From the NCBI GenBank assembly GCA_024279735.1, contig JAJRRF010000166.1:1-47806 (forward strand): 47,806 nucleotides of DNA, in the 5' to 3' direction. The notes below the pieces were generated by a model, which searched no databases, had not been told where the DNA came from, and was given only the letters and a program-made list of their open reading frames with translations. Source of the DNA: Alphaproteobacteria bacterium (lineage in GTDB: Bacteria; Pseudomonadota; Alphaproteobacteria; Rhizobiales; JAJRRF01). The first letter of the stretch is position 1. Each line of letters starts with the position of its first letter. Positions 2,722 to 22,000 of this stretch are shown piece by piece. Both the position numbers and the translations under genes were made by a program.

Positions 2722-2840
2722 TTTTTAGTCCTCGCTTTGCTCGTCTCGCCTTTGCGGCGTTGGCCTAGGTGTCAAGCCGCTGGGCTGTGCCCGTTGGGGA
2801 TGGTCATTGCTTATGTTGGCATTTATCCCGCTTGGCTCAA
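2722..2840 (-). repeat. conserved intercistronic element, copy 1 (5' of int)
   Basis: Sense strand: TTGAGCCAAGCGGGATAA...CATCCCCAACGGGCA...AGCGGCTTG...GCCAACGCCGCAAAGGCGAGACGAGCAAAGCGAGGACTAAAAAATG. Aligned by eye with the four other prophage copies. Confidence 0.85.
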
Positions 2841-2850
2841 TTTTGGAGAA

Positions 2851-3120
2851 TCAGGCTTGGTCTTTGATAAATATCACATCTGTGGCGGGGAGTCTTTGGC
2901 TTGCGCCAAGATAGTAGATAGTGCCTTGTGGCGTGTGGTCTGTAAAGAGCAGGCGGGCGGTGATTTTGCCGTTTTTGTAGATTTGGGTGATAGCCATGGC
3001 AAGCAGTTGGTCGCCATCTGCTTTTTTAATGATGTTTCCTGGGCGCAAAATATGGCCGTCAATGTCCTGCGCTGTCAGTGTCAGGTCGCCCTTCAGGGCT
3101 TTGGTTGTGAACAGTTTCAT
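2851..3120 (-). CDS. hypothetical protein (89 aa)
   Basis: ORF in the leftward operon. Its ATG overlaps the stop of the upstream small ORF (ATGA at 3117-3120). Confidence 0.6.
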   Translation of the reverse strand: MKLFTTKALKGDLTLTAQDIDGHILRPGNIIKKADGDQLLAMAITQIYKNGKITARLLFTDHTPQGTIYYLGASQRLPATDVIFIKDQA

Positions 3121-3296
3121 GTCTGCCTCTGAAATATGCTTTTTTTCTTGGGTTTTTGGTAGAAGTTTTGCAAAAACAGGTAGCGTTCAAGATATTCTGT
3201 CAGCAGTTCTACCTGCTCTGTATCGGCCTGGATGTCTGCTTCGCAGAGGGCGGCCTGGATGGTTTTTTTCAGGCAGCTTTTGGGGATCTTGGTCAT
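3117..3296 (-). CDS. hypothetical small protein (59 aa), not in the supplied ORF track
   Basis: Hand translation: MTKIPKSCLKKTIQAALCEADIQADTEQVELLTEYLERYLFLQNFYQKPKKKSIFQRQT*. It has ATGA start/stop overlaps with both neighbours (3293-3296 and 3117-3120). Confidence 0.55.
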   Translation of the reverse strand: MTKIPKSCLKKTIQAALCEADIQADTEQVELLTEYLERYLFLQNFYQKPKKKSIFQRQT

Positions 3297-3508
3297 TCTG
3301 CGGCTTCTTTTGTTGGTGTGTCTGCCAGCAATTCTTGCCCTAGCTCTTCCAGGGTTTTGCGGGCGGTATATTGCAGGATGGCCAGCAGTACCAGCGCGTC
3401 TTGCTCTTCTGTCAAGATGTCAGGGGCGGTGAAGCCAGGGGGCAGGTTTAGGGTAGCCTCGTGGCGGATTTGACCGATTTGCAGTGTGAGTGTGACTTTG
3501 TGGGTCAT
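3293..3508 (-). CDS. hypothetical protein (71 aa)
   Basis: The ORF is preceded by element copy 2, which ends in AAGGACTAAAAAATG. Confidence 0.6.
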   Translation of the reverse strand: MTHKVTLTLQIGQIRHEATLNLPPGFTAPDILTEEQDALVLLAILQYTARKTLEELGQELLADTPTKEAAE

Positions 3509-3632
3509 TTTTTAGTCCTTACGCCGTAGGCGTTCGTCTCGCCTCAAGGCGTTGGCTTTTGTGCAAGTCTGAAATTGTGCCTGTTGGGGATGCTTGTTCA
3601 TTGTGTGGGCAGTTATCCCTTTTGGCTCAATT
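3509..3632 (-). repeat. conserved intercistronic element, copy 2
   Basis: Sense strand: TTGAGCCAAAAGGGATAA...CATCCCCAACAGGCA...CAAAAGCCAACGCCTTGAGGCGAGACGAACGCCTACGGCGTAAGGACTAAAAAATG. Confidence 0.85.
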
Positions 3633-3637
3633 GGGGA

Positions 3638-3856
3638 TTATGCTGACCCTTTGGCTTTGCTGACATCATATTTGATGGCGAGCTGGTCGCACAGGGAGTC
3701 AGTGGTTTGAGAAACGAGGCTGTCAATCAACATCACGAGATTTGCAAAATCGTCGGGGCTATCCATTTTTGGGATTTTTAGAACTTTATTGTCAATTTTT
3801 CCTTTAAATTCACCTGTGACTTCATCAACTACTATAGTTACTGATATATCTAACAT
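3638..3856 (-). CDS. hypothetical protein (72 aa)
   Basis: ORF packed 2 nt after the upstream gene in the same operon. Confidence 0.55.
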   Translation of the reverse strand: MLDISVTIVVDEVTGEFKGKIDNKVLKIPKMDSPDDFANLVMLIDSLVSQTTDSLCDQLAIKYDVSKAKGSA

Positions 3857-3858
3857 GC

Positions 3859-4164
3859 TTAACTTCCTATTTTCTCTAGTCGTTGTTTTAGGATTGCGCC
3901 CCAGTCTTTTTCTTCTGGGGGGAGGTCTTTGGGGGCGGTTTTGGCCGCTTCGGTGGCGGCGCGGTAGGCGGCAACTGTGATTTTTAGGTCATCGGACAGA
4001 TTGCGGTCGAGCCAGGCATAAACTTGCACCGCTGACCAGATTAACTGGCCGTCTTGAATGGGCGGGGGCATTCCGTCCTGTACCAGCTTTTTCCAATTAT
4101 GGTAGACCCAATCCTTGCTTTTGCCGATTTGGGCAGCCAGTTGGGCGGTGTTGAGGGTGTGCAT
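3859..4164 (-). CDS. excisionase/AlpA-like helix-turn-helix DNA-binding protein
   Basis: The N-terminus LNTAQLAAQIGKSKDWVYHNWKKL...VQVYAWL matches the small MerR/Xis-type HTH pattern. The gene lies in the int-proximal operon. Confidence 0.55.
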   Translation of the reverse strand: MHTLNTAQLAAQIGKSKDWVYHNWKKLVQDGMPPPIQDGQLIWSAVQVYAWLDRNLSDDLKITVAAYRAATEAAKTAPKDLPPEEKDWGAILKQRLEKIGS

Positions 4165-4526
4165 TAGCCTTGCTCCCCATTTTCTTGCTCTTTGAGAGCT
4201 TGTAAATATTGCGCAGAGCCTGTTTTGTAGGCACTGATAAGATCCGCGGCAGTGTGAACCAGCATTTGTTCTGTCTGTGGGAACTGAAAAGGCGGCATGA
4301 GCTGAAACAGGATAGAAATAGCTACGCCAGGGGCTATATTTATCATCACATTTGGGTCAGTGCCGCGCTGGCGTTCTTCGTCCATCAGCTGTTGCAGGAC
4401 AGGGGTGAGATGGTTGAGCATACGGCCATAACAGGCATCGTATTCGTTGTCTGAGGTCATAAGTTCAGCATAAGCCTGACCAGCCTTGCTGCTCTCTATC
4501 ATTGCTGATGTGGCAGATTTTGCCAT
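4164..4526 (-). CDS. hypothetical protein (120 aa from MAKSATS...)
   Basis: Start chosen at the ATG at 4526, preceded by GGGAG. The longer track ORF (to 4652) would run through the operator/promoter region. Confidence 0.55.
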   Translation of the reverse strand: MAKSATSAMIESSKAGQAYAELMTSDNEYDACYGRMLNHLTPVLQQLMDEERQRGTDPNVMINIAPGVAISILFQLMPPFQFPQTEQMLVHTAADLISAYKTGSAQYLQALKEQENGEQG

Positions 4527-4561
4527 AAAAAATACTCCCATAATTTTGGTTATGGGTGTAA

Positions 4562-4580
4562 TGTATCGAATATCAATACA
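4562..4580. promoter_or_regulatory. operator-like 7-5-7 palindrome TGTATCG-AATAT-CAATACA within the leftward early promoter
   Basis: On the minus strand it lies between a TTGACT -35 (complement of 4584-4589) and a TACATT-like -10. It shares its half-site with the palindrome at 6229-6247. Confidence 0.6.
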
Positions 4581-4595
4581 TAAAGTCAAATTATT

Positions 4596-4614
4596 TGTAT
4601 CTAATACAGATACT
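4596..4614. promoter_or_regulatory. second operator-like palindrome TGTATCT-AATAC-AGATACT
   Basis: Same 7-5-7 geometry and GTATC half-site core, 16 nt from the 4562-4580 palindrome. Confidence 0.5.
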
Positions 4615-4652
4615 TTTTGTTTGATCGTTATGTCTGTCAAAAAGTTATGCAC

Positions 4653-4676
4653 ATAAAAATACCCCGTTTTCGGGGT
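4653..4676 (-). terminator. rho-independent terminator ending the repressor-side transcription unit
   Basis: Minus strand: ACCCCG-AAAA-CGGGGT followed by ATTTTTAT, about 40 nt after the stop at 4714. Confidence 0.7.
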
Positions 4677-4713
4677 GAAAACGAGGGTAATATGTTTGAT
4701 TGTTTGCTGCGTG

Positions 4714-5193
4714 TTATTCGCTGCTGTCTGTTGCGACGAAAAAAGGTTGTAGTGCCAACAGGCTATAGCCGTGAATTGCTGGAAAACTTAGCGGATCATC
4801 CCGAAGAAGCTGCCAACGTGTTTCCATTTTTGCATGCTGCCCTGCCAAAAGAGGAAGGCGAAGGAGTTGTATCTGGTAAAGTTTCTGACCTGTCTGATCA
4901 TACGCGTATTTAAGGGCGGTTTCTTGATCTGTCATTGCGGTAGGGCGGAGTACAAAATCAACTATGCCGCAGATTGCTGAGATTTTGGCGGCATTTTTAG
5001 GGAGTTCCTTGTCATGAAGCAAGGCAGTTGTGCGCCTTCGGGCTTCCTCAAGGTTAAAGAATGGTTCGTGATTTCTTATTTCTGTGAGAATGACTTCAGG
5101 CCAAAAGACTTTGCCGAGCTGGAGGTGTAGCTCTATTTCTATGGGTTCTGGTGTGTTGCTGATAAAGTCCTGAATAATGTCTAGTAGGGTCAT
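4714..5193 (-). CDS. hypothetical protein (159 aa from MTLLDIIQD...), co-transcribed with the repressor
   Basis: ORF with an internal ATG at 5193, 8 nt after the stop of the upstream gene. I recognise no motif. Confidence 0.55.
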   Translation of the reverse strand: MTLLDIIQDFISNTPEPIEIELHLQLGKVFWPEVILTEIRNHEPFFNLEEARRRTTALLHDKELPKNAAKISAICGIVDFVLRPTAMTDQETALKYAYDQTGQKLYQIQLLRLPLLAGQHAKMETRWQLLRDDPLSFPAIHGYSLLALQPFFVATDSSE

Positions 5194-5200
5194 GTTGTGC

Positions 5201-5530
5201 CTATTGCATGAAAAAATTGGTGATGACGGTGCTGTATTTTGCAAAAATTTCCCTGCCAAATCCTTGCGCCACACCCACAACGATAAGGCCTGAAGTGAGG
5301 GCGAGGCTTGCCCAGATGCGGCGTTTTCGGCGATGCCATTTTAGCAGCGGCAGGATAAAGGCGCGGGCTTCAATCGCCCTGTCATTTTTGCGCGGCTTGA
5401 GGGCGTGCAATATGTCTTCTAGGATAGGGGGTTGTTTTTGGTGTTTTTCTGCAAGTGCCAGCAGCTTTGTGTTTGTTAAGCTGCACAGATGATCTTCGCT
5501 ATAGAGTTCAAAACGGGGTTTTGCCATCAT
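5201..5530 (-). CDS. hypothetical membrane-anchored protein (about 110 aa from MMAKPRF...)
   Basis: ATG-ATG at 5525-5530, preceded by AAGGAAAT. One hydrophobic helix, IWASLALTSGLIVVGVAQGF, follows a basic stretch HRRKRR. Confidence 0.55.
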   Translation of the reverse strand: MMAKPRFELYSEDHLCSLTNTKLLALAEKHQKQPPILEDILHALKPRKNDRAIEARAFILPLLKWHRRKRRIWASLALTSGLIVVGVAQGFGREIFAKYSTVITNFFMQ

Positions 5531-5550
5531 ATTTCCTTGCTGTTTTTTCT

Positions 5551-5603
5551 GTCGCAATAGCGCGGACGTAAAACCGCTTTGCACTTTTACTGCGATTGCT
5601 TGT
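5551..5603 (-). repeat. ~50-nt hairpin repeat, copy A (directly 3' of the repressor gene)
   Basis: Minus-strand sense: AAGCAATCGCAGTAAAAGTGCAAAGCGGTTTTACGTCCGCGCTATTGCGAC. The first 20 nt are identical to copies B and C. Arms GCAATCG/CGATTGC-like and GTAAAA/TTTTAC can pair. Confidence 0.85.
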
Positions 5604-5604
5604 G

Positions 5605-6162
5605 TTAAAACCGCCCTAGCACTTCGCCGATCCAATCGAGATAGACCTGTTTTTCTGGCGGGCCATTCCAGTTTGTGAGGTCATAGGTGCTGGCAGTGTT
5701 GCCGTTTTCGAGGATGCGGGCAACCATCGGGCCGTTTGTGATTTGAGCCACGCATTCCTTGCCAAGCATATAAGAGGGAATGCCCTTGAGTTTGCGATAA
5801 ATCAGGGCTTCGCCCTCAAAATAACGCGGATAGAGGCTGTTGCCCCTGATGGCGATGGCCACCAGATTATCGCCGAGAATTTTAGGGACGCGGACATTTT
5901 CTGTCCATTTGTTCTGGGGCAGAAAGAAGATCTCGCCCTTCTCATTGGTATAGCCCGTAATGCGCACATCTTGCCAAGGTTCTGAGATGATTTCTTCATA
6001 GGGCACATTAAGGGCTTCTGAGAGGCGGTCTAGCCATGGTTCTATGCCACGGACACCGCGTTCGATATTGCTGAGATTTACTCGCTGCGTCCCAATCAGT
6101 TCAGCAAGCTGCTCTTGTGTCAGACCTTTTTGTTTTCGTATTGTCGCTAGATTATTGTCCAT
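5605..6162 (-). CDS. CI/LexA-like repressor (XRE HTH plus an S24 peptidase-like C-terminal domain)
   Basis: N-terminus: IRKQKGLTQEQLAELIGTQRVNLSNIERG. C-terminus: AIAIRGNSLYPRYFEGEALIY, a G-x-S-(M/L)-x-P-like motif. Divergent from a Cro-like gene. The ATG at 6162 is preferred over the TTG at 6171. Confidence 0.85.
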   Translation of the reverse strand: MDNNLATIRKQKGLTQEQLAELIGTQRVNLSNIERGVRGIEPWLDRLSEALNVPYEEIISEPWQDVRITGYTNEKGEIFFLPQNKWTENVRVPKILGDNLVAIAIRGNSLYPRYFEGEALIYRKLKGIPSYMLGKECVAQITNGPMVARILENGNTASTYDLTNWNGPPEKQVYLDWIGEVLGRF

Positions 6163-6222
6163 AGTATTCAAAATGAATACTTTTATGAGTTGAGTCTATT
6201 TTCAAATACGTCAAAAAAAATA

Positions 6223-6247
6223 TTGACATGTATCGTCATTCGATACA
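6223..6247 (+). promoter_or_regulatory. rightward early promoter -35 plus operator palindrome
   Basis: TTGACA (6223-6228) is followed directly by the perfect 7-5-7 palindrome TGTATCG-TCATT-CGATACA (6229-6247), 10 nt before the ATG at 6258. The -10 is not clearly assignable, and no SD is visible. Confidence 0.6.
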
Positions 6248-6257
6248 TTTATAGATT

Positions 6258-6521
6258 ATGAAACTCATTGACTTTAAAAATAGACAAGGATTGTCAATCC
6301 AAGAATTAGCTGAACTGCTGGAAGGGCCAGTGGCATCTGTTAAGTCATGGCTGTATTCTGACAGATTACCGCGCAGAACAGAACTCATCAAAATTTATGA
6401 CAAGACCAATGGTCTTGTGACACCGAATGATTTTGTGTTGCCTGAAGACCCTGACCCGCCGCCTGAGGAGGAGGAAGAACCGCCGATTTTGGATTGCATC
6501 CAAAAGACAGCGGCTGAATAA
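6258..6521 (+). CDS. Cro-like HTH protein with an acidic, proline-rich tail
   Basis: GLSIQELAELLEGPVASVKSWLYSDRLP is HTH-like. The gene is divergent from the repressor across an 86-bp control region. Confidence 0.65.
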   Translation: MKLIDFKNRQGLSIQELAELLEGPVASVKSWLYSDRLPRRTELIKIYDKTNGLVTPNDFVLPEDPDPPPEEEEEPPILDCIQKTAAE

Positions 6522-6572
6522 AGCAATCGCAGTAAAAGTGCAGCGCGGTTTTACGTCCGTCGATTGCGATAC
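6521..6572 (+). repeat. ~50-nt hairpin repeat, copy B (directly 3' of the cro-like gene)
   Basis: AAGCAATCGCAGTAAAAGTGCAGCGCGGTTTTACGTCCGTCGATTGCGATAC, starting at the last base of the stop codon. Confidence 0.85.
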
Positions 6573-6622
6573 AAAACGGCTTAGGGGTAAGCCCAAAACA
6601 AAAAAAATCAGGGGCAAAGCAT

Positions 6623-7003
6623 ATGCAGGGGGCAACATCACCAACACAGTTGGGCTTTGCGTTTTATTATCCGCCTGAGCGGGTGATTGCGGCTGGGGTC
6701 TATTATCGGGCGGCAGCTTCGCTGATTGGCAAGGGGCGCGGCCAGGTGCGTTTTCCCGTCGGAATGGTATTGCCGCGTGTCAGTTGGCGCAAACGCAAGC
6801 GGCAAGTGGCGGCCTATCTGGCTGTGACCCATGGCGGCTTTGCCCAGGCCGATGTTGCCAATTATCTGGGATTGAGCCGCAATAGTGTGTGGCATGGTTG
6901 CCGCACGATTGAGGCTTGGCGTGATGAGGAGCGGGTGCGCTTTTTTTTACGCAGGCTTGAGGGGCGGCTAGACGAGATGAGGCCATGTCATGCTGGATTT
7001 TAA
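6623..7003 (+). CDS. DnaA domain IV-like HTH protein (candidate replication initiator or regulator)
   Basis: RKRQVAAYLAVTHGGFAQADVANYLGLSRNSVWHGCRTIEAWRDEE follows the pattern of the DnaA C-terminal DNA-binding domain (ARQIAMYL...IG..FG.RDHTTV.HA..KI). This is pattern recognition only. Confidence 0.5.
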   Translation: MQGATSPTQLGFAFYYPPERVIAAGVYYRAAASLIGKGRGQVRFPVGMVLPRVSWRKRKRQVAAYLAVTHGGFAQADVANYLGLSRNSVWHGCRTIEAWRDEERVRFFLRRLEGRLDEMRPCHAGF

Positions 7004-7976
7004 TGCGATTAAAAGCGGCCTTCAGGCACGGATAAACTATCTGGCGCGGGAGCTTGCGCCTGGGGGATATGAGGATAGCGGCAATTATTTTGCCAAAAGC
7101 CCGTTGCGGTATGACCGTAAGATTGGCTCATTTTATATTGGCCTGGTGGAGCGGCCAACTTTTCAGCGCGGGGCTTGGATTGACCAAAGCACGGGCGAAA
7201 AGGGCGATATTATTGACCTGATTGTTGCAGTGCATGGACTGGACAAAGTCGCGGCGTTTCGTTGGGGCGCGGATTATTTGGGGCAGGATTTTGAGGTCAA
7301 GGCTTTGCCTAAAGATAGCGCGCCTGTTTATGGTTCTGCTGGCAAGAAACCGCAAAGCGCAAAAGAGCAAGCGGCCAGTGCGGCCAAGTGGTTTGCGCGG
7401 GCAGGGGCGATAAAGAACACGCTGGCAGAAACATATTTAAGCGCGCGCGGGCTGGCGATGAAAGACTACCCGCGCTGCCTGGGTTTTCTTAACAATGTGC
7501 GCCACCGCGATAATGGCACGTTCCCCTGTATGATGACAGGTTTGACGGATGCCAAGGGCAAAGTAAAGGCGGTTCACCGCACTTTTTTAAAGCATGATGG
7601 GACAGGCAAGGCGGAAGTTGATCCGCCTCGCTTGGTATGGCCTGGCTATAAGGGGCTGATTATGCGGCTGCATAGCACAGATGACAGTCATGATCTCGCC
7701 CTTGTGGAAGGGGTTGAGGATGGTTTGAGCGTGGCCAAGGCCAAGCCTGACCTGAATGTATGGGGGGCGGTTTCGGTCTCAAATTTCAAAAATATAACCC
7801 TGCCTGCGATTTTGGGCACAGTCTATATCTGCGCGGATAATGACGCGGCAGAGTCAAAGGCAGGCAGGGCGTTGGACAAGGCAGTAGCGGCACTGTTGCC
7901 AGAGATTAAACGGCGCGGCGCGCGATTAATGATTGTGCGTTCGCCCGTGGGCAAGGATTTTAATGATGTCTACTAA
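6990..7976 (+). CDS. Toprim-domain DNA primase-like protein
   Basis: The N-terminus (GSFYIGL...GAWIDQSTGEKGDIIDLI) resembles the primase finger-like domain without cysteines. The C-terminus, ALVEGVEDGLS...YICADNDAAESKAG, carries the Toprim E...DxD signature. Confidence 0.7.
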   Translation: MLDFNAIKSGLQARINYLARELAPGGYEDSGNYFAKSPLRYDRKIGSFYIGLVERPTFQRGAWIDQSTGEKGDIIDLIVAVHGLDKVAAFRWGADYLGQDFEVKALPKDSAPVYGSAGKKPQSAKEQAASAAKWFARAGAIKNTLAETYLSARGLAMKDYPRCLGFLNNVRHRDNGTFPCMMTGLTDAKGKVKAVHRTFLKHDGTGKAEVDPPRLVWPGYKGLIMRLHSTDDSHDLALVEGVEDGLSVAKAKPDLNVWGAVSVSNFKNITLPAILGTVYICADNDAAESKAGRALDKAVAALLPEIKRRGARLMIVRSPVGKDFNDVY

Positions 7977-8051
7977 CTGCGTTAGGGCTGTTTTTAGCGC
8001 GCGTGGCTGCGTCTTAGGCAGGATAATAATGATTATGCGGGGGCATAGCTT

Positions 8052-9911
8052 ATGAGTAGTACAACCACGGTTGTTGAGGGCGCGTTTATGGAAGCGCGGC
8101 CTGCGGGTGATGATGGTTTTGAAGACTTTAGCCCTGCTATTGGTGAGCCGCTCAATGGTGTGCCGCCTGGGAAGTGGAACAGGCGGCGGGATGGCCTGCC
8201 AGAGGGCTGCCCTGTGACTCCTTTGGGCATTCAAGGCAAGAATTTTTTCTTTCTCGACCACGCGCAACAATTTTATGGCTATAAAGCCAATGATTTTAAC
8301 CAGGCGGGGCTGGAAACGCTATTTGGGGGCGATTATAACTATCTGTGTTGGGCATGGCCGCGCTGGGGCAAGCCGAAGCAAGGTCGGCCTGCACCTGGGG
8401 AACTGATTGCCCAATTTTCGGCTGATATTGTCGGTTATGACAGTGCCCGCATACGTCCTGCGATGATGGCGGCGTGCAAAACCAAGGGCATTTGGAACGG
8501 GATGGATAAATTGCGCGGTCGGGGAGCTTGGAAGGCTTCGGACGGGCGGTTGTTGCTGCATTGCGGTAATGTGATTGTCGATGGTGATACAGAAAAGCTA
8601 CCTGATGAGATAGACGGTTGCGTTTATCCTGCCCTTGGGCCGTTGTCGCGGCCTTGGCCAAAGGCAGCAGAGGCCGATAGCAAGCATCACGGCGCCAATT
8701 TGCTAAAGCTGTTCAGGCAATGGAATTTTAAGCGTAAGGATGTTGATCCTGTTTTGCTGCTTGGTGCTGTTGGGGTGTGTTTTTTGGGCGGGGCGTTGGA
8801 ATGGCGGTCTGCGACCTATCTGACGGGGGATACAGCCACTGGTAAGTCAACTTTGTTGGGGGTGATAGAGTCTGTGCTGGGTGATTGGGCGATGATGTCC
8901 ACCAATACAACGGCGGCGGGGATTTATCAGAATATTGGCTTTGATGCCACCGCTGTTATTTTGGATGAACTGGAAGCGGCGGAAGATAACCGCAAGATGA
9001 CGGCGATTATTGAGCTGATGCGCCAGGCCAGTAGCGGCGGGCTGATGTTTCGCGGCGGCGGTGAGCATCAAGGGGTCTCGTTTACGAGTCGTTCGGCGTT
9101 TATTTTTGCATCGATCAATCCTGTGCCCTTGGAAAGCCAGGATTTTAACAGGATGGCTTTGCTTCAGCTCCAACCATTGCCGCCTTCCCAGTCCCAACCT
9201 GTGATAAAAGAGGATGAGCTTGCCCTAACGGGCAGGATCATTTTAAAGGCTCTGGCTGATAATTGGCATCGGTTTGACGCGGTTTATCAGCGTTTTGCCC
9301 AGGAGCTGGCTGAAGGCGGGCATAATGGGCGCGGTCAAAAGACCTTTGGTACACTCCTGACCTGTGCGTCCTTGATTGTGGGCGATAAATGGCAGGAGCT
9401 TGATGTGCCGTTGGGTGATGATTTGACCCCGTGGCGCAAGTGGCTGCGGCGCGAGGCCTTGGCAGAGTATGAGGATGCTTTGCCCAATTGGCAGAAATGT
9501 CTCAATAGGCTGCTGACGGTGCATATTGATAAGTGGAGTAGTGGGATGAAAGGCACGATTGGGAAGGAACTGGAACAGTTTTATGAGATGCAGCCAGATC
9601 ATCCCGATACCAATATTGACATGACCAATGGGACTTTGTCCCAAGCGGGGTGTCGGTTGGTCGAGGTTGGCGGGGTTTGGTGGCTGGCTGTTCCCAACCA
9701 GTCTACCGATATGAAGAAAATTTTTGAAGGGTCGCAGTGGGTTGGTGGCTCGACTGGGTCGTGGGGGAATGCGATACGGCAATGGGTCGATGAGGATGGG
9801 TCGCGCTGGCAAAAGAGAAAGGTGCGCGTCAATGGGGCGACGTTGAACTGTACGCTTGTTTCATTAGATGCGCTTTACGGCGATGATGGTGTGATGACGG
9901 ATTGTCTCTAA
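8052..9911 (+). CDS. P-loop NTPase, phage/plasmid replicative (SF3/P4-type) helicase-like
   Basis: Walker A GDTATGKST and Walker B VILDELE. Lies downstream of the primase gene. Confidence 0.7.
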   Translation: MSSTTTVVEGAFMEARPAGDDGFEDFSPAIGEPLNGVPPGKWNRRRDGLPEGCPVTPLGIQGKNFFFLDHAQQFYGYKANDFNQAGLETLFGGDYNYLCWAWPRWGKPKQGRPAPGELIAQFSADIVGYDSARIRPAMMAACKTKGIWNGMDKLRGRGAWKASDGRLLLHCGNVIVDGDTEKLPDEIDGCVYPALGPLSRPWPKAAEADSKHHGANLLKLFRQWNFKRKDVDPVLLLGAVGVCFLGGALEWRSATYLTGDTATGKSTLLGVIESVLGDWAMMSTNTTAAGIYQNIGFDATAVILDELEAAEDNRKMTAIIELMRQASSGGLMFRGGGEHQGVSFTSRSAFIFASINPVPLESQDFNRMALLQLQPLPPSQSQPVIKEDELALTGRIILKALADNWHRFDAVYQRFAQELAEGGHNGRGQKTFGTLLTCASLIVGDKWQELDVPLGDDLTPWRKWLRREALAEYEDALPNWQKCLNRLLTVHIDKWSSGMKGTIGKELEQFYEMQPDHPDTNIDMTNGTLSQAGCRLVEVGGVWWLAVPNQSTDMKKIFEGSQWVGGSTGSWGNAIRQWVDEDGSRWQKRKVRVNGATLNCTLVSLDALYGDDGVMTDCL

Positions 9912-10016
9912 TCCCGACCTGTTTTGATGGTGTGATGGCCTTTGGCTGGGGTCTGGTGGTCTTTCCAGACCTATCTGTGGGTATGGCAGGGCATTTTTGG
10001 GGCGGTTTGTTCTGGT

Positions 10017-15234: not shown

Positions 15235-15340
15235 ATTTGGGCGCGGTCTTTGCGGCTGAAACACGCCAGCCCTAGCCAGTTTGTGACTTATTTTAAAATT
15301 TTGTCATGTGACAGCTTTGACGCGGGGTTATGCTTGCATC

Positions 15341-15691
15341 ATGCAAAATAATTCCAAACTTCCCTCATCATGGGACAAACTCGGCGGACTATCCAATCCT
15401 CCCTTGTCCCAGTCAGATGAGATCAAAAATATGAAAAATGCCTTTGACCGAATGGCCGACCTGTTTGTGTCAGTGCTGGACACAGACCAGGGCAAACGCC
15501 TTCTGGATTATCTTGAAGCGTCTACTATCCAACGCTCCAGCTTTAACATTGATGATGAGACCTTGGAAAAGGTGGCCTTGCGCGGCGCGTTTCGCGCAGG
15601 TCAAAATGCGGTTGTGATGCAAATGATTGACGTGGTGCGCCACGGCAAAAAAATGAAAGCCATTAACAGGGAGGCTGATAGTGAATCGTAA
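15341..15691 (+). CDS. hypothetical protein (116 aa)
   Basis: ORF between portal and scaffold. The ATG at 15341 is preferred over the GTG at 15308. Confidence 0.5.
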   Translation: MQNNSKLPSSWDKLGGLSNPPLSQSDEIKNMKNAFDRMADLFVSVLDTDQGKRLLDYLEASTIQRSSFNIDDETLEKVALRGAFRAGQNAVVMQMIDVVRHGKKMKAINREADSES

Positions 15692-16607
15692 ACCCCTCAT
15701 TGCCTTTGCGCCTGAAACAGGGGCTGGGGCTGGTGCAGATTCAGGCGCGGCAGAAGCTCCGCCGCCTGCTTCACGTCATGATGCCAGCTATGGCGGCCTG
15801 GTGACAACGCCAGAAGCCCCAGGCAGTGCTGATCCAGCGCAAAACCAGGCTGATCCAGCAACGCCGCCCGCTTCAGACCCCGCTTCAGGGAATGACCAAC
15901 AGCCCCCTGAAAAGGCAGAGACAAAATCATACCAGCCAGAAGGCTTGCCAGATGATCTGCTGGGCGCAAATGACCAGGAAACCATTGACAAAATGTTGGC
16001 AGCGCAGTCTAAAAACGCAGCGCCTGAAACACCAGCAGATTACAAATTTGAGTTTGATCAAAAGCTTAAAGATAGTTTCCCTGGTAATCCTGCGGATGAT
16101 CCCGCCCTGATCGGCTGGTCAGATATTGCCCATAAGCATGGTCTCAGCAATGAGGCCGCCAATAGCATTATCACAGAAGTTATGAATGATTGGCTTGATA
16201 AAGGGCTGGTTGCCAAGCCTGTCAGCCCAGATGAATTTTGGAATGCCCTGGCTGAAAATGGCGGCGGTGCCGCGTCAGGACAAAAGCGCGTCAATGAAGC
16301 AGCCACCTTTGTCCAGGGATTGGAAAACAGCCATGTGTTGACGGCGCAACAAAAAATCAGCCTGACAAATTTTGCCACTGCCGCCCCTGAAAATGTCGCC
16401 ATCATTGAAGCCCTAAAGGGCGCAATGGCAGGCCACGGGGTGCAGACAGGCGGTGATCCGTCTGTGCCAACAGCCTTCACAAAAGACGACCTTGCCCGTC
16501 GCCGTTCTGACCCACGTAACGATAGCCAAAATCATGCCAATTATGACCCGAAATATCGTGCCGAAACAGACAGGCTGGCAAAAAGTCTTTTAAAAACAGA
16601 ATCGTAA
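15681..16607 (+). CDS. putative scaffolding protein
   Basis: GTG start with a strong SD (AGGGAGG). Low-complexity Ala/Pro/acidic N-terminus. Lies immediately upstream of the capsid gene. Confidence 0.55.
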   Translation: MNRKPLIAFAPETGAGAGADSGAAEAPPPASRHDASYGGLVTTPEAPGSADPAQNQADPATPPASDPASGNDQQPPEKAETKSYQPEGLPDDLLGANDQETIDKMLAAQSKNAAPETPADYKFEFDQKLKDSFPGNPADDPALIGWSDIAHKHGLSNEAANSIITEVMNDWLDKGLVAKPVSPDEFWNALAENGGGAASGQKRVNEAATFVQGLENSHVLTAQQKISLTNFATAAPENVAIIEALKGAMAGHGVQTGGDPSVPTAFTKDDLARRRSDPRNDSQNHANYDPKYRAETDRLAKSLLKTES

Positions 16608-16631
16608 AGTTAAAAAAGGTAGGGTAAATAA

Positions 16632-17516
16632 ATGTCAGACGAAGCCATAAATTGGTTTGTAGAAGAGCAAAGTGCTGAAGTGATCCGCCGTTATCAAAAT
16701 GGCGGAAATTTTATGGCAGGCACGCACCGTAAGGTCAAGTCTATTGATGGCAAGAGCCTGACCCTCCGCAATATTGGAAAACTGAAAGTGCGCCCCTTGG
16801 TGCGCAAAGGCAAGGCCGCCCCGCAAAATGCAGAGATGGGCACAATCACCCTGGAGACCCAGGCCAGTCAGATTTTTTACCTGTTGTCGGAAGATGATAC
16901 CGAGCAGATGACACCAGAGGATAAAGACTCTTTATCCCAAGAAAGTGCCGATGCTTTTGGCCGTGAAAAAGACCGTATTTGTTACACCGCATTAGACCAA
17001 GGCGCAGGTCAGTATGGCACTATTATTGGCGATGGCAATCAACCACTGACAGCAGATATGGCTTTGGAGGCCTGTGATGCCATGCAGGACAAGGATGTGC
17101 CTTGGGACGGTAATGTGTTTTGCCCCTTGCCATCACGTCAATGGAATAACTTGCTGACCCATAAGGCTTTTATAGAGGCTGATTATGTTGGGCCTGACCT
17201 GCCATTTGCCAAAAAAATGACCAAAAAAACCTGGAATGGCGTGCATTGGATGATGGCTTATAATGACCTGTTTCCCCGTCTCGGGATGCCCAAGCGCGTC
17301 AAGGGCACATTAAACGCCAAAGATCGTTTCTACATGTATCACTATTCTGCCCTGGCCAGCGGTGATGTCTATGATATTCGCTCTAATACTGTTTGGGACA
17401 ATGACCGCACCGCTTATACCGTCAATAGCCGTATGCGGATGGGGGCAGAGGTGCTGGACAAAGAAGGCGTGGTTGAGTTTTTGGTCAAGGGCAATGCGCC
17501 CCTGGCATTTGCATAA
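16632..17516 (+). CDS. major capsid protein
   Basis: 294 aa, in the expected position after the scaffold. The strong expression context and size are consistent with an HK97-fold capsid. No search was possible. Confidence 0.7.
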   Translation: MSDEAINWFVEEQSAEVIRRYQNGGNFMAGTHRKVKSIDGKSLTLRNIGKLKVRPLVRKGKAAPQNAEMGTITLETQASQIFYLLSEDDTEQMTPEDKDSLSQESADAFGREKDRICYTALDQGAGQYGTIIGDGNQPLTADMALEACDAMQDKDVPWDGNVFCPLPSRQWNNLLTHKAFIEADYVGPDLPFAKKMTKKTWNGVHWMMAYNDLFPRLGMPKRVKGTLNAKDRFYMYHYSALASGDVYDIRSNTVWDNDRTAYTVNSRMRMGAEVLDKEGVVEFLVKGNAPLAFA

Positions 17517-17534
17517 TAAATTAAGGGTATCGTT

Positions 17535-17807
17535 ATGGCAGCACTGATAAAAAATGATAGCCGCATGAACCGTATGGGGGATGGCGGGTCACTGCCCAAC
17601 CGTTCGGTCATGTGCATTTGGCACTTGGCAACAGATGATAGTATCGTCCATGTCGAGGCCGACGGTTATTTTGATAATTTTGCAGACGTTCTGGAAATTG
17701 GTGAGCCAATTATGGCCTCAATGGCTGTTGGTTCTGACCCTGTTCTCAAATTTTACATTGTCGCAACCAATGACGGCCAAGCTGTTACGATCAGTGCTGC
17801 TGAGTGA
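17535..17807 (+). CDS. hypothetical virion-module protein (90 aa)
   Basis: ORF between the capsid and adaptor genes. Confidence 0.5.
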   Translation: MAALIKNDSRMNRMGDGGSLPNRSVMCIWHLATDDSIVHVEADGYFDNFADVLEIGEPIMASMAVGSDPVLKFYIVATNDGQAVTISAAE

Positions 17808-17858
17808 TAATAGTTTGGAGTTATTGCGAGGAATGGCCTTGGCGGCCTTGGAGCGTGA

Positions 17859-18476
17859 ATGATAAGAATTGACATATGCAACCAGGCACTTAGCCGCATT
17901 GGTCTTGAACCCATTGCGTCCGAGGGGGCGGACGGCGCGGACACCATCATAAATATTTATGATGGTGTTTGTGCGAATCTGATCTCGCTGTATGATTGGC
18001 ATTTCTGCCAAGGCCTCGCCCGGCTGCCCAAATTGTCTTTGCCGCCGCAAGACCAGCGACAAGAGCAGCAATATAAATATGCCTTTAAACTGCCTCCTGA
18101 CAGGGTAGGGCCGCCAACAACGGTCTATGATGAAAAGTCCTGCAATGTCCCCCTAAAATGCTTTGCCTTGCGGGAAGCAGATATTTGGGCAGACGCGGAA
18201 GAACTCTGGATTGAATATGTCCATTTGCCTAATCCGCTGAATTGGCCAGGCTATTTTACAGAAATGGTGCTGACGGCGATGATGTCAGAAATTGCCCTGT
18301 CGGTACGTGAAGATAAATCACTGTCACAAATGCACTATCAAAAAGCCTTTGGCAGTCCAAGGGAAGGCGGCATGGGCGGCTTGTTTGAAACAGCCAGAAG
18401 CCGCGAAGCCAGCTCAAAACCAAGCAAAGCTTTTGGCAGGCAAGACAGTATGTTGCTCAGGGCCAGACGTTTTTAA
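17859..18476 (+). CDS. T7 gp11-like tail tubular protein A (adaptor)
   Basis: 205 aa. The N-terminus ICNQALSRIGLEPIASEGADGADTIINIYDGV...LYDWHF parallels the T7 gp11 N-terminal pattern as I remember it (ILASIGEPPVSTLEGD...AN..RIL...SRGWTF). Confidence 0.6.
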   Translation: MIRIDICNQALSRIGLEPIASEGADGADTIINIYDGVCANLISLYDWHFCQGLARLPKLSLPPQDQRQEQQYKYAFKLPPDRVGPPTTVYDEKSCNVPLKCFALREADIWADAEELWIEYVHLPNPLNWPGYFTEMVLTAMMSEIALSVREDKSLSQMHYQKAFGSPREGGMGGLFETARSREASSKPSKAFGRQDSMLLRARRF

Positions 18477-18488
18477 GTGCTAACACCA

Positions 18489-18609
18489 ATCAAGCCGAAA
18501 GGGATCAATGTGCCCTACAAAGCGCGGACATCCCCAACAGGTAAAAAATAGCGGCTTGGTACAAAAGCCCGCGCCTTGAGGCGCGACAAGCAAAGCGAGG
18601 AGTTCAATA
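18489..18609 (+). repeat. conserved intercistronic element, copy 3
   Basis: CAAGCCGAAAGGGATCAA...CATCCCCAACAGGTA...AGCGGCTTGGTACAAAAGCCCGCGCCTTGAGGCGCGACAAGCAAAGCGAGGAGTTCAATAATG. Confidence 0.85.
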
Positions 18610-20742
18610 ATGCCCGAAGTACGTAATGCTTTGACATCAGGCGTTTTAGACCCGCTGCTTAAAGATCGGTATGATCTGAAGCAATATAATGCGGGTCTTG
18701 AAACAGGCGTGAATATTGAGTTCCTGCCTCAGGGCGGGGTGCGCAATCGCGCAGGTCATGCCCATAAGCATATTTTTAGAAATGTTTTGCAGGCTCTGAA
18801 TGTCAATACGCCGTTGCTGACAAAATCGCCCGCAAACCTGCCTAATATATTTGCCCAGTTTGACCAGGGTTTAGTCCAGTCTGTCGCCAGTTTTGATATT
18901 TTTGGCTTTTATGCCGCGCCAGAACAAGCCGCGCAAAGCGCGGATGCGCCAGCAGAAGAAACAGCAGAAGAAAAACTAAAGCGTGAAGAAGCAGAAGCCA
19001 AAGCAGCAAGAGATCTCGCCAGGCGCAACGGCAAGCCCGTTTGTAAAATTAAGTTAGAATATAGTCTGGATAATGCAAGCTGGACGCAATTAGGCGTTGC
19101 CCACGATCTAACTCGAACGCCCCGCACACGCCGTTTTGCTCAGCAAACAGGCACTGTGCAGGCGCGCTATTGGCGTATAACTGTGTTTGATTTAGTTGGT
19201 GCGACTGATCTTGGTGAAATAAAAATTGAACGCCTCAAAATGTGGTCTGAAACACAGACAGTCAGCCCTGTCAAACTGATGAATAATGGGGTTTATACCC
19301 TGGCAATTACGGCTCAAAATATAGATATTTTTAAAAATGGCAACTGGCAAACCTCAGTGCCAGGGGATGCAACGTCTAACCAGTTGCCAATGGTCACGCA
19401 TACTCAAGAATCCGCGACCGTGCTGCTATTCCATCCTGATATTCGCCCTGTGCGTTTGAAACGGCAAGGCAGGGATAACAGTTGGAACCATGATTTTCCT
19501 GTTCTTGAAAATGTGCCTGATGACGTAATGGATGCTGCTTTAGGCTGGCCAAGATGCGGCGTGTTCTACCAGTCGCGCCTAATCTTAGCAGGATTTAAAG
19601 CCGCGCCAGATGTGATCCTGTTTAGCGTCAATGGCGATATTTTTAATTTCAACAAGGGCGAGGGCGACCTGGCAACAGACGCGATGCAATACCGCGTTGA
19701 TGCGGGTTTTCCGCAAATTATTTACCGCATTTTTGTTGGCCGCCACCTGCAATTTTTTACCGACCAGGCCGAGTGGTTTATTGAAGCCAGAACAGTCGAT
19801 GCCACCAAGCCGCTAAACGTCGTACTTGCCACCCGCCACGGCATTAGGCCAGGGGCAGGGGTGCATTTTATCGAAGGCTCAACCGTTTTTGTGCAAAAAA
19901 CAGGCACGGTGTTGCGTGATTTTTTATTCAGTGACGCAGAACTGTCTTACAAAGCAGAGGCCATCACCTTGCTGGCCAGCCACCTGCTGACCAATGTGGT
20001 AGACATTGCCGTCAGGCGGGCGGCGGAAACCAGTGAGGGTAATCTGGTATTCCTGATAAACGCAGATGGCAGCATGACCTTGCTGACATTGTTGCGCTCT
20101 CAATCTGTGGTTGCCGCCGCGCAATGCATCACAGACGGCGATTATCTGGCGGCGGATGTCGATGATAATGATGAGGTCTGGCTGGCGGTGCGCCGCAATG
20201 GCCAGGTCTGCCTGGAGCATTGGGACACAGAAAGTTTGCTGGACGGCGCAAAACATTTTTATTTTGCCAATCCAACCCAAGTCATATCTGGCCTGGAGCA
20301 TTTGGAAGGCAAGACGGTTTGGGCGGTGGCAGACGGCAACCCCTGGGGACCTGATATTGTTCAAAATGGCCAGATTATTCTGGACAAGCCAGCCAGCCAA
20401 GTGGAAGTCGGCCTGTTGCCAGAGCTAAAAATACGACCGATGCCGATGGTGCAACGCACCAGGGACGGCGATGTAGTGCGGCGCAAACGGCGCATTCATA
20501 CGGTCTGGCTCTCACTGATAAAGACAGGTGATTTGCAGCTATCAGCCAATGACGGCCCCGCGCGGCCTGTGCCATTACGCAGTTTTGGCGACAGGGTTCT
20601 TGATATGCCGATGATGGGCGATTTATTTACAGGCGAAAAACGCCTGCAAAACCGCAAGGGGTGCGGCTATCACCCCACAATAGAACTCACCCGAACCGTC
20701 CCGGCCCCCGTGCTGGTACGCTCAATTTTAATGGAGACGTAA
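18610..20742 (+). CDS. T7 gp12-like tail tubular protein B (nozzle)
   Basis: 710 aa, directly after the gp11-like gene. The call rests on size and synteny. An inserted Ala/Glu/Lys-rich coil is followed by a segment ending ARYWRITVFD. Confidence 0.6.
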   Translation: MPEVRNALTSGVLDPLLKDRYDLKQYNAGLETGVNIEFLPQGGVRNRAGHAHKHIFRNVLQALNVNTPLLTKSPANLPNIFAQFDQGLVQSVASFDIFGFYAAPEQAAQSADAPAEETAEEKLKREEAEAKAARDLARRNGKPVCKIKLEYSLDNASWTQLGVAHDLTRTPRTRRFAQQTGTVQARYWRITVFDLVGATDLGEIKIERLKMWSETQTVSPVKLMNNGVYTLAITAQNIDIFKNGNWQTSVPGDATSNQLPMVTHTQESATVLLFHPDIRPVRLKRQGRDNSWNHDFPVLENVPDDVMDAALGWPRCGVFYQSRLILAGFKAAPDVILFSVNGDIFNFNKGEGDLATDAMQYRVDAGFPQIIYRIFVGRHLQFFTDQAEWFIEARTVDATKPLNVVLATRHGIRPGAGVHFIEGSTVFVQKTGTVLRDFLFSDAELSYKAEAITLLASHLLTNVVDIAVRRAAETSEGNLVFLINADGSMTLLTLLRSQSVVAAAQCITDGDYLAADVDDNDEVWLAVRRNGQVCLEHWDTESLLDGAKHFYFANPTQVISGLEHLEGKTVWAVADGNPWGPDIVQNGQIILDKPASQVEVGLLPELKIRPMPMVQRTRDGDVVRRKRRIHTVWLSLIKTGDLQLSANDGPARPVPLRSFGDRVLDMPMMGDLFTGEKRLQNRKGCGYHPTIELTRTVPAPVLVRSILMET

Positions 20743-20745
20743 AAA

Positions 20746-21174
20746 ATGGTAGACGAAACACCTAAACAAGGAAAGCCAACAATAAGAGAGTTGGAAATTG
20801 GAACACAAATGTTCACTAAAGTGATCGCACTTGATGAGCCTTCAAATGGTGGGGCTTCGCATTTATATGTAACGATTCCTGCTGGTTTTGATCTAACAGA
20901 TGCAAACAATGCTATTCCTGCTGTCGTTAGAAATAATGCAATTTGTGAAATACATTTTCAGCAAGGCCCTACAAAAGAAGTGGGTTTAAATGGTGTGCAT
21001 CATGATGATCTTTTGGCCATGATTATTGATAGAATTCAGGGCTTTCAATCTGGGGATTTTAAATGCCGTGAAAATGCTATTGCTATCACAAAATTGGAAG
21101 AGGCTAAGCATTGGCTTGATCATAGGGCAAATAATCGCAAGAAGCGAGGTGTACTAAGTACAAGCAAAATTTGA
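20746..21174 (+). CDS. A+T-rich accessory ORF (142 aa, moron)
   Basis: Intact ORF 3 nt after the nozzle gene stop. Line 20761-20820 is 21/60 G+C by hand count, against about 50-65% in its neighbours. The C-terminal helical motif is FKCRENAIAITKLEEAKHWLDHRANNRKKRGV. Confidence 0.65.
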   Translation: MVDETPKQGKPTIRELEIGTQMFTKVIALDEPSNGGASHLYVTIPAGFDLTDANNAIPAVVRNNAICEIHFQQGPTKEVGLNGVHHDDLLAMIIDRIQGFQSGDFKCRENAIAITKLEEAKHWLDHRANNRKKRGVLSTSKI

Positions 21175-21287
21175 GCCGAAAGGGATCAATGTGAATCAAG
21201 TGATGACCATCCCCAACGGGCAGGCCATAGCGGCTTGAAACCAAAGCCTGCGCCTGAAGGCGAGACGAGCAAAGCGAGGATTTAAAA
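21171..21287 (+). repeat. conserved intercistronic element, copy 4
   Basis: TTGAGCCGAAAGGGATCAA...CATCCCCAACGGGCA...AGCGGCTTGAAACCAAAGCCTGCGCCTGAAGGCGAGACGAGCAAAGCGAGGATTTAAAAATG. The TGA stop of the moron lies inside its first bases. Confidence 0.85.
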
Positions 21288-21800
21288 ATGGCTTCAATGG
21301 TGATGGGTCTGTTTACAGCAATGGGCACGGGGGGCGGTCTGCTGGCAACAGGCAGCGCGGCCCTTACAGGTATGCAAGGGCTGATGACCGCTGGCAGTGT
21401 TTTGTCGTCTGTGGTCGGCGGTATCTCTGCCTATAATACAGGGCAGACCCAGCAAGAATGGGCAAACCTCAATGCGCAAGGCGAGGAGCTGAAAAGCCGT
21501 GATGCCGCCGTTGGCATTCGTAAAGACATGCTCCGCAATCTGGCCAGCCAGCGGGTTGCCTTTGCAGGCAGCGGCGTTGATATTAGCTATGGCACGCCCG
21601 AAACGCTCTATCAAGATACCCTCAATGATGGCCAATATAATATTGACATGACCATGAATAACGGCGCAATCGCAGCCGCTGGCCAACGTTATCGCGGCCA
21701 ACAAGCCGCCAATCGCGGCGCGCTTAGTGCATTGCGCTACGGCGTGAAAGGAGTCAGCACCGCAGGCCGTTATCTGACAGATATTAGCAGAAGGGGATAG
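21288..21800 (+). CDS. gp14-like internal virion protein
   Basis: 170 aa with a Gly/Ala-rich hydrophobic N-terminus (GLFTAMGTGGGLLATGSAALTG). Lies before the gp15/gp16-like genes. Confidence 0.55.
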   Translation: MASMVMGLFTAMGTGGGLLATGSAALTGMQGLMTAGSVLSSVVGGISAYNTGQTQQEWANLNAQGEELKSRDAAVGIRKDMLRNLASQRVAFAGSGVDISYGTPETLYQDTLNDGQYNIDMTMNNGAIAAAGQRYRGQQAANRGALSALRYGVKGVSTAGRYLTDISRRG

Positions 21801-21872
21801 GATGTTTTTTTTAAGTGCTGAATGGCGCACGGCCTTTCGCCCTAATGGGCGGGGCAACGCGAGGAACAAACA

Positions 21873-22000
21873 ATTGAGCCGTGCGGGACAAAAGCCCACA
21901 GATTGCAAGGTCATCCCCAACGGGCAAGGGCTATGCGGCTTGATACCAAAACCCACGCCGCAAAGGCGAGACGCCCCCTTACAGGGGGAGGATTGTTAAT
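21873..22000 (+). repeat. conserved intercistronic element, copy 5
   Basis: TTGAGCCGTGCGGGACAA...CATCCCCAACGGGCA...TGCGGCTTGATACCAAAACCCACGCCGCAAAGGCGAGACGCCCCCTTACAGGGGGAGGATTGTTAATATG. Confidence 0.85.

Follow-up and report, generated by a model that had tools for sequence, protein, structure and literature searches.

An intergenic repeat family common to an uncultured alphaproteobacterium and its podovirus prophage, with phage copies that end in the Shine-Dalgarno sequence of the next gene

Eight copies of an intergenic repeat in prophage and host DNA

The stretch of DNA analysed here, hereafter the window, is one entire 47.8-kb contig (47,806 nt; JAJRRF010000166.1, assembly GCA_024279735.1) of an uncultured, marine-type alphaproteobacterium, and contains a prophage together with adjoining host genes. 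It carries a previously undescribed intergenic repeat in eight copies: five full ones (c1-c5) and a 5'-truncated one (c6) in the prophage, and two partial ones (c7, c8) in host DNA (Table 1). The family is thus found in both the bacterium and its prophage. All six prophage copies are oriented in sense with their genes and place the AGGA of a Shine-Dalgarno (SD) sequence 6-9 nt before an ATG. Our leading interpretation, held with somewhat less than even confidence, is that of a lineage-specific intergenic repeat family, the phage subfamily of which would act in mRNA as an intercistronic cassette of 5' untranslated region (UTR) and ribosome-binding site (RBS).

The initial annotation of this DNA had described five copies of ~120 nt, and each of these was recovered at the same coordinates and on the same strand, both with an nhmmer profile (E 3e-29 to 8e-36) and with a covariance model (120-144 bits). 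Its count of five, or seven, falls short: c6, c7 and c8 bring the total to eight, and no further copy is found in the window at E<=0.01. Its description of an element that follows the orientation of the genes and ends in an SD applies to six of six prophage copies, whereas the host copies run antisense to the genes beside them and lack an SD. As these two lie outside the attachment (att) sites, the rule holds for the six prophage copies only.

Table 1. Copies of the repeat, in order along the window, followed by the principal features of the prophage
Feature	Coordinates	Strand	nhmmer E	Covariance model	Remarks
c1, full copy	2722-2840	-	7e-35	144 bits	
c2, full copy	3509-3632	-	3e-29		precedes 71-aa open reading frame (3293-3508)
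c6, 5'-truncated copy	13259-13341	+	8e-8	25.9 bits, E 8e-5	
c3, full copy	18489-18609	+			precedes tail tubular protein B (gp12-like) gene (18610-20742)
c4, full copy	21171-21287	+	8e-36		precedes internal virion protein (gp14-like) gene (21288-21800)
c5, full copy	21873-22000	+			precedes gp15-like gene (22001-24241)
c7, partial copy	~40742-40809	+	9e-8	18.2 bits	host DNA
c8, partial copy	46975-47071	-	1.4e-5	21.8 bits	host DNA
Prophage	~1436-40409				delimited by a 58-nt direct repeat (3' portion of tRNA-Cys)
attL	1436-1493				left repeat, 58 nt (3' tRNA-Cys part); 95% identity
attR	40352-40409				right repeat, within the intact tRNA-Cys gene (40362-40435, -)
Tyrosine integrase (int)	1582-2721	-			prophage
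cI-like helix-turn-helix repressor	5605-6171	-			opposite the cro-like gene; immunity region
cro-like gene	6258-6521	+			87 aa; immunity region

The prophage copies precede int, early and virion genes, and take up nearly all gaps of at least 60 nt between co-directional prophage genes. In four of the five full copies the stop codon of the upstream cistron lies 0-13 nt from the 5' clamp. Copy c1 fills the gap from an 89-aa open reading frame (ORF; 2851-3120) to the integrase gene, its 3' end reading GAGGACTAAAAA-ATG; in c4 the TGA stop of the upstream gene (21172-21174) sits within the TTTGAGCC block; c5 makes up the 3' 128 nt of a 200-nt gap. The truncated c6 is composed of a short GGGA-AUUUAA-UCCC hairpin, the core AATCCCCAATAGG, GCGGCCTGG, a GCGCC-GCGCA-GGCGC hairpin and an SD, the last standing as AAGGAA-N5-ATG before a 73-aa ORF (13342-13563) that itself lies upstream of the portal gene. 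The loop of the GGGA/UCCC hairpin in c6 contains the stop codon (13276-13278) of the preceding gene.

Both host copies lie within only ~7.4 kb of host sequence, beyond attR. Copy c7 consists of the core alone, with neither the CGCC hairpin nor an SD or start codon, and is situated between tRNA-Cys and the 3' end of trpE (40828-42366, -), antisense to both; the adjoining segment 40702-40741 may be a degenerate second 5' block. Copy c8 combines the core with a GCGGCT/AGCCGC hairpin, has no SD or start codon, and is antisense to secG and glnA (both +); a 12-14-bp inverted repeat, CCAGATCACAAAGG / CTTTTGTGATCTGG, encloses it. The secG-glnA region that holds c8 (46609-47692) is an unusually long non-coding stretch of ~1.1 kb, with no Rfam match at E<=5.

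Sequence anatomy and conservation

The five full copies align over ~135 columns with a mean column identity of 75%. In the eight-copy alignment the pairwise identity is 61-77%, and this low level marks them as old repeats. Conservation is block-wise: among the full copies the blocks are 74-100% identical, as against 44-50% in the segments between them. The blocks are: TTGAGCC, GGGAY, CATCCCCAACRGG, GCGGCTTG, AAARCC, CGCC, GGCGMGAC and AGGA. One block, ATCCCCAA-YR-GG, is invariant in all eight copies, the host copies included, and this single 14-column window contains 10 of the 17 invariant columns of the eight-copy alignment (p < 5e-5). The core 13-mer occurs 11 times at no more than two mismatches, where 2.7 occurrences are expected. 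The core that is shared with the host copies measures ~80 nt, the prophage subfamily ~120 nt. In the six prophage copies the stem of the CGCC/GGCG hairpin, preceded by an A-tract, is likewise invariant, and each full copy is closed by the SD GAGGA, followed by an A-rich spacer of 6-9 nt to the ATG.

This anatomy agrees in every block with that given in the initial annotation, namely TTGAGCC-N4-GGGAY, CATCCCCAACRGG, GCGGCTTG, AAARCC, CGCC-loop-GGCGMGAC and AGGA-N6-9-ATG. Copy c2, the most divergent of the full copies, has CAGACTTG in place of GCGGCTTG. Also as described there, the segment 5' of the SD is AGCAAAGCG in three copies, its place being taken by an ACGCC-TAC-GGCGT hairpin in c2 and a CCCCCT-TAC-AGGGGG hairpin in c5. 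The single-nucleotide indels between copies, which had led to the view that no conserved peptide is encoded, are present and leave no common frame. A peptide-coding role was rejected: c5 alone is spanned by an ORF (65 aa), and the short frames that begin with AUG in c1, c3 and c4 show no conservation. The 65-aa ORF that runs through c5 (21802-21999) is probably spurious.

A motif TTTTTAAGTGCT(A/G)A is common to the 5' flank of c3 (18469-18482) and the start of the gap that holds c5 (21806-21822), and a weaker form of it, TAAGTAC, precedes c4 (21155-21165). Hence, the copied unit in the virion module may reach further 5' than the TTGAGCC block.

Distribution and constraint in relatives

The element was found in one other genome, GCA_054001895.1, where it belongs to a related prophage (79% gp12 identity). 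The contig of this prophage (L169) starts inside the orthologue of c3, the sole copy for which an orthologue was recovered (L169 1-47). The comparison spans just 47 nt, SD included, and 41 of these (87%) are identical, versus 48-52% at 4-fold-type third positions of the four flanking genes gp12-gp15 (binomial P = 3.5e-7). Such identity beside saturated synonymous sites argues for constraint, and it is the strongest evidence that the element has been maintained, whether through selection or through concerted evolution.

In the same contig the places before gp14 and gp15 are taken by unrelated sequences of 66 nt and 109 nt, which have small hairpins and SDs of their own. A possible 17-nt vestige before gp15 (CGAGACAAGCACAAGCG) is borderline against shuffled sequences (2-6 of 300) and is not relied on. 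Between gp14 and gp15 the contig has a nucleoside 2-deoxyribosyltransferase-like gene (3201-3641), where the window has 72 nt (21801-21872) and c5. The host relative with 67% identity in triose-phosphate isomerase has no copy. As judged from these genomes, the element is narrow in distribution and dispensable at particular positions.

The initial annotation could assign the element to no known RNA family, and this still stands: with Rfam 15 the entire window yields tRNAs only at gathering thresholds, and the regions of c1/c2, c4/c5 and c7/c8, searched at E<=5-10, yield chance-level matches (the best at 14.5 bits against a threshold of 44). In viral contigs the patterns for the core, for the 5' block plus core and for the 3' module had zero matches each. 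The related-locus search with gp12 as query returned no relatives, blastn of c4 against phage and plasmid collections returned nothing relevant, and the sequence string of the element was not found in the literature. A stricter core pattern matched metagenome contigs 46 times, in all cases by chance and in coding DNA. The loose pattern ATCCCCAACRGGN{8,12}GCGGC had at least 120 chance matches in genome contigs of unrelated taxa, and none of the matches listed contains the wider element.

A possible role as an mRNA 5'-UTR cassette

From the repeat itself, its anatomy, orientation, register to start codons, constraint and patchy distribution, all directly observed, we infer an action at the level of RNA, and likewise any processing and any trans-acting factor. 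Host RNA polymerase would co-transcribe the element, in sense, within two long phage operons, and several short local hairpins would fill the untranslated gap: GGGA/UCCC with a variable apical part, CRGGY/GCYUG or alternatives to it, CGCC/GGCG after the A-tract, and an optional hairpin 5' of the SD. The strong SD GAGGA with its A-rich 6-9-nt spacer would allow independent initiation of the downstream cistron in a constant context. The invariant AUCCCCAACRGG junction would most likely be the recognition site for a trans-acting factor, be it a nuclease, an RNA-binding protein or an RNA. The hairpins would probably also serve as determinants of processing or stability, uncoupling the upstream from the downstream segments of the mRNA.

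If the copies are indeed such RNA cassettes, they would constitute a compact and portable insulator and RBS module, through which a temperate marine podovirus would serve its lysogeny, early and virion genes with a single design. Engineered intercistronic insulators would have in them a natural counterpart. They would also provide a handle on the tuning of expression in the very long operons of polymerase-less phages. A core common to prophage and host bears on the origin and spread of repeats with a 5' UTR and RBS, a question raised for the REP2 and SAS/ESAS repeats discussed below. The finding would be an ordinary one if the element were only a decaying mobile repeat.

Several observations weigh against an mRNA cassette. 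The host copies have no SD and are antisense to their neighbours. The related prophage is without the element at two of three comparable positions (gp14, gp15), and in a phage with ~42% gp12 identity the genes abut tightly, with no such gaps. The conservation of the c3 orthologue, measured over so short a span, could reflect gene conversion among copies, not selection. As to structure, where all statistics are drawn from 5-8 sequences, covariation reaches significance in no helix; the folding z-scores are unexceptional (full copies -0.8 to -2.6, c6 0.0); the minimum-energy folds are unlike between copies; and GGCUUG has three mutually exclusive partners, so that no single fold is established. 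The helices put forward in the initial annotation thus gain no statistical backing from either covariation or folding energy. Copy c8, with a z-score of -4.8, is the exception because of its flanking 14-bp inverted repeat.

The individual helices bear on this in different ways. GGGAT/ATCCC and CGCC/GGCG never vary and are hence uninformative either way, and GGCUU/AAGCC has no compensatory change. An additional helix, CRGGY/GCYUG, together with GGGA/UCCC covers every block conserved in eight of eight copies. In these two helices 97% of cells are paired, and four of the five CRGGY/GCYUG pairs vary on one side with pairing kept; the changes are all transitions opposite G or U, which leaves the test without power. 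Two details count in favour: the TCAAGCC variant of c3 spoils a would-be -35 hexamer yet pairs better with GGCTTGG, as an mRNA cassette would have it, and c6 retains the GGGA/UCCC stem with the apical part reduced from 22-24 nt to a 6-nt loop, which speaks for that hairpin. Taken together, the sequences are compatible with RNA structure, even with alternative folds, and fall short of demonstrating it.

Alternative explanations

The main alternative, doubtful but quite possible, is that of a selfish or neutral mobile repeat of the host, similar to miniature inverted-repeat transposable elements (MITEs) or repetitive extragenic palindromes (REPs), which colonised the prophage gaps: the SD would merely be part of the copied unit and the sense-only orientation the outcome of a filter. 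The reverse complement of the element has a GC hairpin followed by a T-rich tract, such that copies inserted the other way round would stop transcription of the operon and disappear. Terminator-like sites are called on the antisense strands of c2, c3 and c6, so that a sense-only orientation within operons could be explained without any function; on the sense strand no terminator (hairpin plus U-tract) is found in the element. The orientation bias is weak on its own (6/6, two-sided P = 0.03; 6/8 overall). Copies occur in both prophage and host DNA, two of them in the short host segment, and their presence varies between related prophages. The inverted repeat that bounds c8, together with a similar TTTTGTGATCT motif beside c7, suggests a mosaic or tandem arrangement, and the start of the relative's contig inside the c3 orthologue is as expected of an assembly break at a repeat. 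The break of host contig L121 was also considered as evidence of a repeat and was rejected, since it lies inside the trpE coding sequence and not at the position of c7. The general likeness extends to the Correia, enterobacterial repetitive intergenic consensus (ERIC) and REP/bacterial interspersed mosaic element (BIME) repeats, which are intergenic, of ~100-150 nt, shared by chromosome and prophages and predicted to fold. Repeats of these types are co-transcribed with genes and can affect mRNA processing and stability (PMC3184786). The phage copies, however, differ from them in having no terminal inverted repeats (TIRs), as the full-copy ends AATTGAGCC... / ...GCGAGGA are not inverted, and no target-site duplications, as no direct repeats flank them. 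Repeats that go with REP-associated tyrosine transposases (RAYTs) are short (20-40 nt), GC-rich imperfect palindromes of high genomic copy number with a cognate RAYT gene, whereas the element, taken whole, is no palindrome and the window contains no transposase or RAYT gene. Nor are there clean empty sites in L169 at the positions of c4 and c5: its gaps hold other sequence, which indicates that the element replaces intergenic DNA rather than interrupting it. The block-wise conservation and the identity of the orthologue far above that of neutral sites are unexpected of decaying selfish copies, and the core pattern met with chance matches only in the metagenome scan and with none in viral contigs.

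A regulatory cassette at the DNA level, of the type of Neisseria REP2 or Borrelia IR, is unlikely; here a promoter or regulator site (the invariant CATCCCCAACRGG), a 5' UTR and an RBS would subject int, early and virion genes to shared control. In layout the element agrees with REP2 as given in PMC3184786 (120-150 bp, no TIRs, two internal stem-loops, a 3' RBS, directly upstream of ORFs), and the invariant 13-nt block is non-palindromic in all copies, host ones included. Moreover, the elements flank gene modules (c3-gp12-gp13-c4-gp14-c5), with an extra gene at one such junction in the relative, comparable to recombination at the promoter-early stem-loops (PeSL) of PMC2839356. What stands in the way is the promoter: a consensus scan of 2500-22400, for sigma-70-type consensus only, found none in c1, c2, c4, c5 and c6, and the lone match (9/12), at the 3' end of c3, overlaps the start codon. 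TTGAGC-N17 is followed by poor -10 hexamers (AACATA, CACACA, AATCAA, CACAGA), and c3 has TCAAGC instead. Furthermore, the copies lie inside operons, where a promoter is unneeded, and the host copies precede no gene. In addition, several other identities were considered and rejected: a phage-polymerase promoter, as the phage has no RNA polymerase gene; and a sigma-70 promoter, an extracytoplasmic-function (ECF) or sigma-54 promoter (by eye), an integration host factor (IHF) site (by eye), an integron attC site, CRISPR-repeat mimicry, relatedness to the att sites and tRNA-likeness, none of which fits the sequence.

Three further proposals concern the RNA. A T7-like RNase III site, the analogy drawn in the initial annotation, which would be a special case of the favoured mRNA cassette and which we consider decidedly unlikely, would have the helix UUGAGCCG/CGGCUUGA stacked on GGGAU/AUCCC as an irregular two-stem hairpin; cutting in its asymmetric internal loop (CAACRGG plus a variable segment) would leave a 3' hairpin on the upstream mRNA. 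Like the sites of the T7 group, the copies are repeated, sense-oriented, putatively structured and intercistronic, here in a podovirus of the T7 supergroup. Three of them could form the arrangement of lower stem, asymmetric loop and upper stem: the long-range helix has nine pairs in c3, c4 and c5, and the composite forms in the minimum-energy fold of c3. The one compensatory and three one-sided changes of this helix are not above shuffled controls (87-106 of 500); in c1 the helix is down to seven pairs, in c2 to five of nine, and c6, c7 and c8 lack it altogether. The minimum-energy folds of c1, c2, c4 and c5 avoid it. The total pairing of ~14 bp is interrupted and short for RNase III, T7-type sites being irregular hairpins of about two helical turns, and the copies do not all share any long helix (~20 bp). 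Equivalent sites are missing from related phages, and the element is present in the host chromosome. It is also unlikely that the element represents a new class of structured cis-acting RNA, in which the AUCCCCAACRGG junction and the three exclusive partners of GGCUUG would make up a conformational switch. Such a switch, were it to exist, could be set by the ribosome terminating on the upstream cistron, with its stop codon close to the 5' clamp, by a dedicated trans factor or by self-cleavage, and would control processing and translation of the next cistron in marine alphaproteobacterial podovirus prophages, with the host copies in a related role. Most improbable is a control of elongation of the nut/put type, where the motif GCGGCUUG..AAAGCC and a small GC hairpin after it (CGCC-GCAAA/UGAA/UUGA-GGCG, with a loop of 4-5 nt rich in purines) would recruit or strengthen an antitermination complex on the host polymerase along the ~34-kb rightward operon. 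The dependence of the phage on host polymerase for very long operons and the hairpin stem invariant in six prophage copies are consistent with it, and the order of motif and small hairpin recalls boxA-boxB of the lambda nut sites. Yet six sites are far more than in lambdoid phages, the similarity to boxA is weak by eye, the host copies have no hairpin, no N-like protein was identified, and the classical nutR/putR position after the cro-like gene is held by another repeated hairpin (6520-6568 / 37298-37346). The latter is a second repeat family, with two sense-oriented intercistronic copies of 49 nt (both +, 90% identity) that fold as a long interrupted hairpin (GCAAUCG...CGAUUGC around GUAAAAG/GUUUUAC; z -0.5 and -2.5); its second copy precedes a 467-aa gene upstream of the lysis genes.

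Likeness to known gene-start repeats

By layout, Neisseria REP2, Borrelia IR and the start-associated sequences (SAS) and extended SAS (ESAS) of cluster K mycobacteriophages are closer precedents than the T7 RNase III sites. The REP2 and Borrelia IR repeats are 120-180 bp in length, have no TIRs, possess two internal stem-loops, a promoter, an RBS and an ATG, and lie directly upstream of ORFs; REP2 and Borrelia IR-A/IR-B always face the gene and include 5'-UTR sequence, and are not mutually homologous (PMC3184786). The same combination of size, absence of TIRs, stem-loops and a 3' RBS before an ORF is found in the six prophage copies and not in c7 and c8, which have no RBS. This comparison is of layout only, and no sequence relationship is claimed. 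REP2 has a functional promoter and ATG and serves independently transcribed, co-regulated chromosomal genes, whereas in the present element no promoter is detectable and the copies are intercistronic in phage operons.

The 13-bp SAS, GGGATAGGAGCCC, is located 3-7 bp before the start codon and may be accompanied by an inverted-repeat pair of 17 bp; it is confined to non-structural genes, the host genome has essentially none of it, its function is unknown and the hairpin is without covariation support (PMC3203893). The present element resembles SAS and ESAS in several respects: it is phage-borne, in one orientation and near start codons, it contains the SD and is sometimes overlapped by the upstream stop, it lies beside unrelated genes, and its presence differs between related phages. 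It differs in its length of ~120 nt and its sequence, in its occurrence also before int, early and virion genes, and in the partial host copies. The PeSL of T4-type phages combine a strong sigma-70 promoter with a terminator hairpin (PMC2839356). They are comparable as small repeated cassettes at the junctions of gene modules with gain, loss or replacement of genes, as with the deoxyribosyltransferase-like gene at the c5 junction in the relative; unlike them, the present element has neither a sigma-70 promoter nor, in sense orientation, a terminator hairpin. From the REP2, Borrelia IR and SAS/ESAS repeats it is set apart by the absence of a recognisable promoter, by its place between cistrons of the lysogeny as well as the virion operon of a podovirus, and by its size, its sequence and its partial host copies.

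Prophage setting and host context

The prophage is a podovirus of the HTVC010P/MEP301 type, in the T7 supergroup: its tail tubular protein B is nearest to those of Methylophilales phage MEP301 and HTVC010P-type pelagiphages (24-32% identity). Beyond the genes named above it encodes a primase/helicase, terminase, portal, capsid, tail tubular proteins A and B, internal virion proteins, a 2812-aa polyvalent virion protein, tail fibres and an endolysin. The proteins of the window form singleton clusters throughout. No phage RNA polymerase gene was found among the prophage or other window genes, which implies that the leftward (int) and the ~34-kb rightward operons are read by the host polymerase. 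The immunity region (5605-6521) is of the lambdoid cI/cro type, and its cI-cro intergene contains a TTGACA hexamer and a palindrome, ATGTATCG-TCATT-CGATACAT, that is operator-like in appearance. The host genes adjoining the prophage are trpE, ppiD, tpiA, secG and the start of glnA. The host triose-phosphate isomerase has at most 67-71% identity to public sequences, except for one relative at 88%, and its named matches are from Hyphomicrobiaceae-type alphaproteobacteria.

A second tyrosine integrase gene (36-1376, -) lies just outside attL, beside a tRNA-Cys-like copy (1436-1518) that scores 40 bits with Rfam and receives no ARAGORN call. This suggests that two elements are integrated in tandem at one tRNA-Cys gene, the second leaving the contig at its edge. 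Between the genes for tail tubular protein B and the gp14-like protein is a 142-aa gene (20746-21174, +; phrog_2428) with an orthologue at L169 2197-2625; given the precomputed Pfam assignment of this orthologue, Acb2_Tad1_hairpin, it may encode an anti-CBASS/Thoeris sponge within the structural module. In the 2812-aa virion protein (24256-32694, +), residues ~1619-1787 form an ART-PolyVal ADP-ribosyltransferase domain and the C-terminal part is a virion structural region (phrog_684); the protein is probably an injected polyvalent one. Finally, a 449-aa tail-fibre-like gene with a collagen-repeat match contains three direct repeats of ~96 nt (34421-34990, +), 67-74% identical and spaced by 225-249 nt, which point to an internally repetitive fibre.

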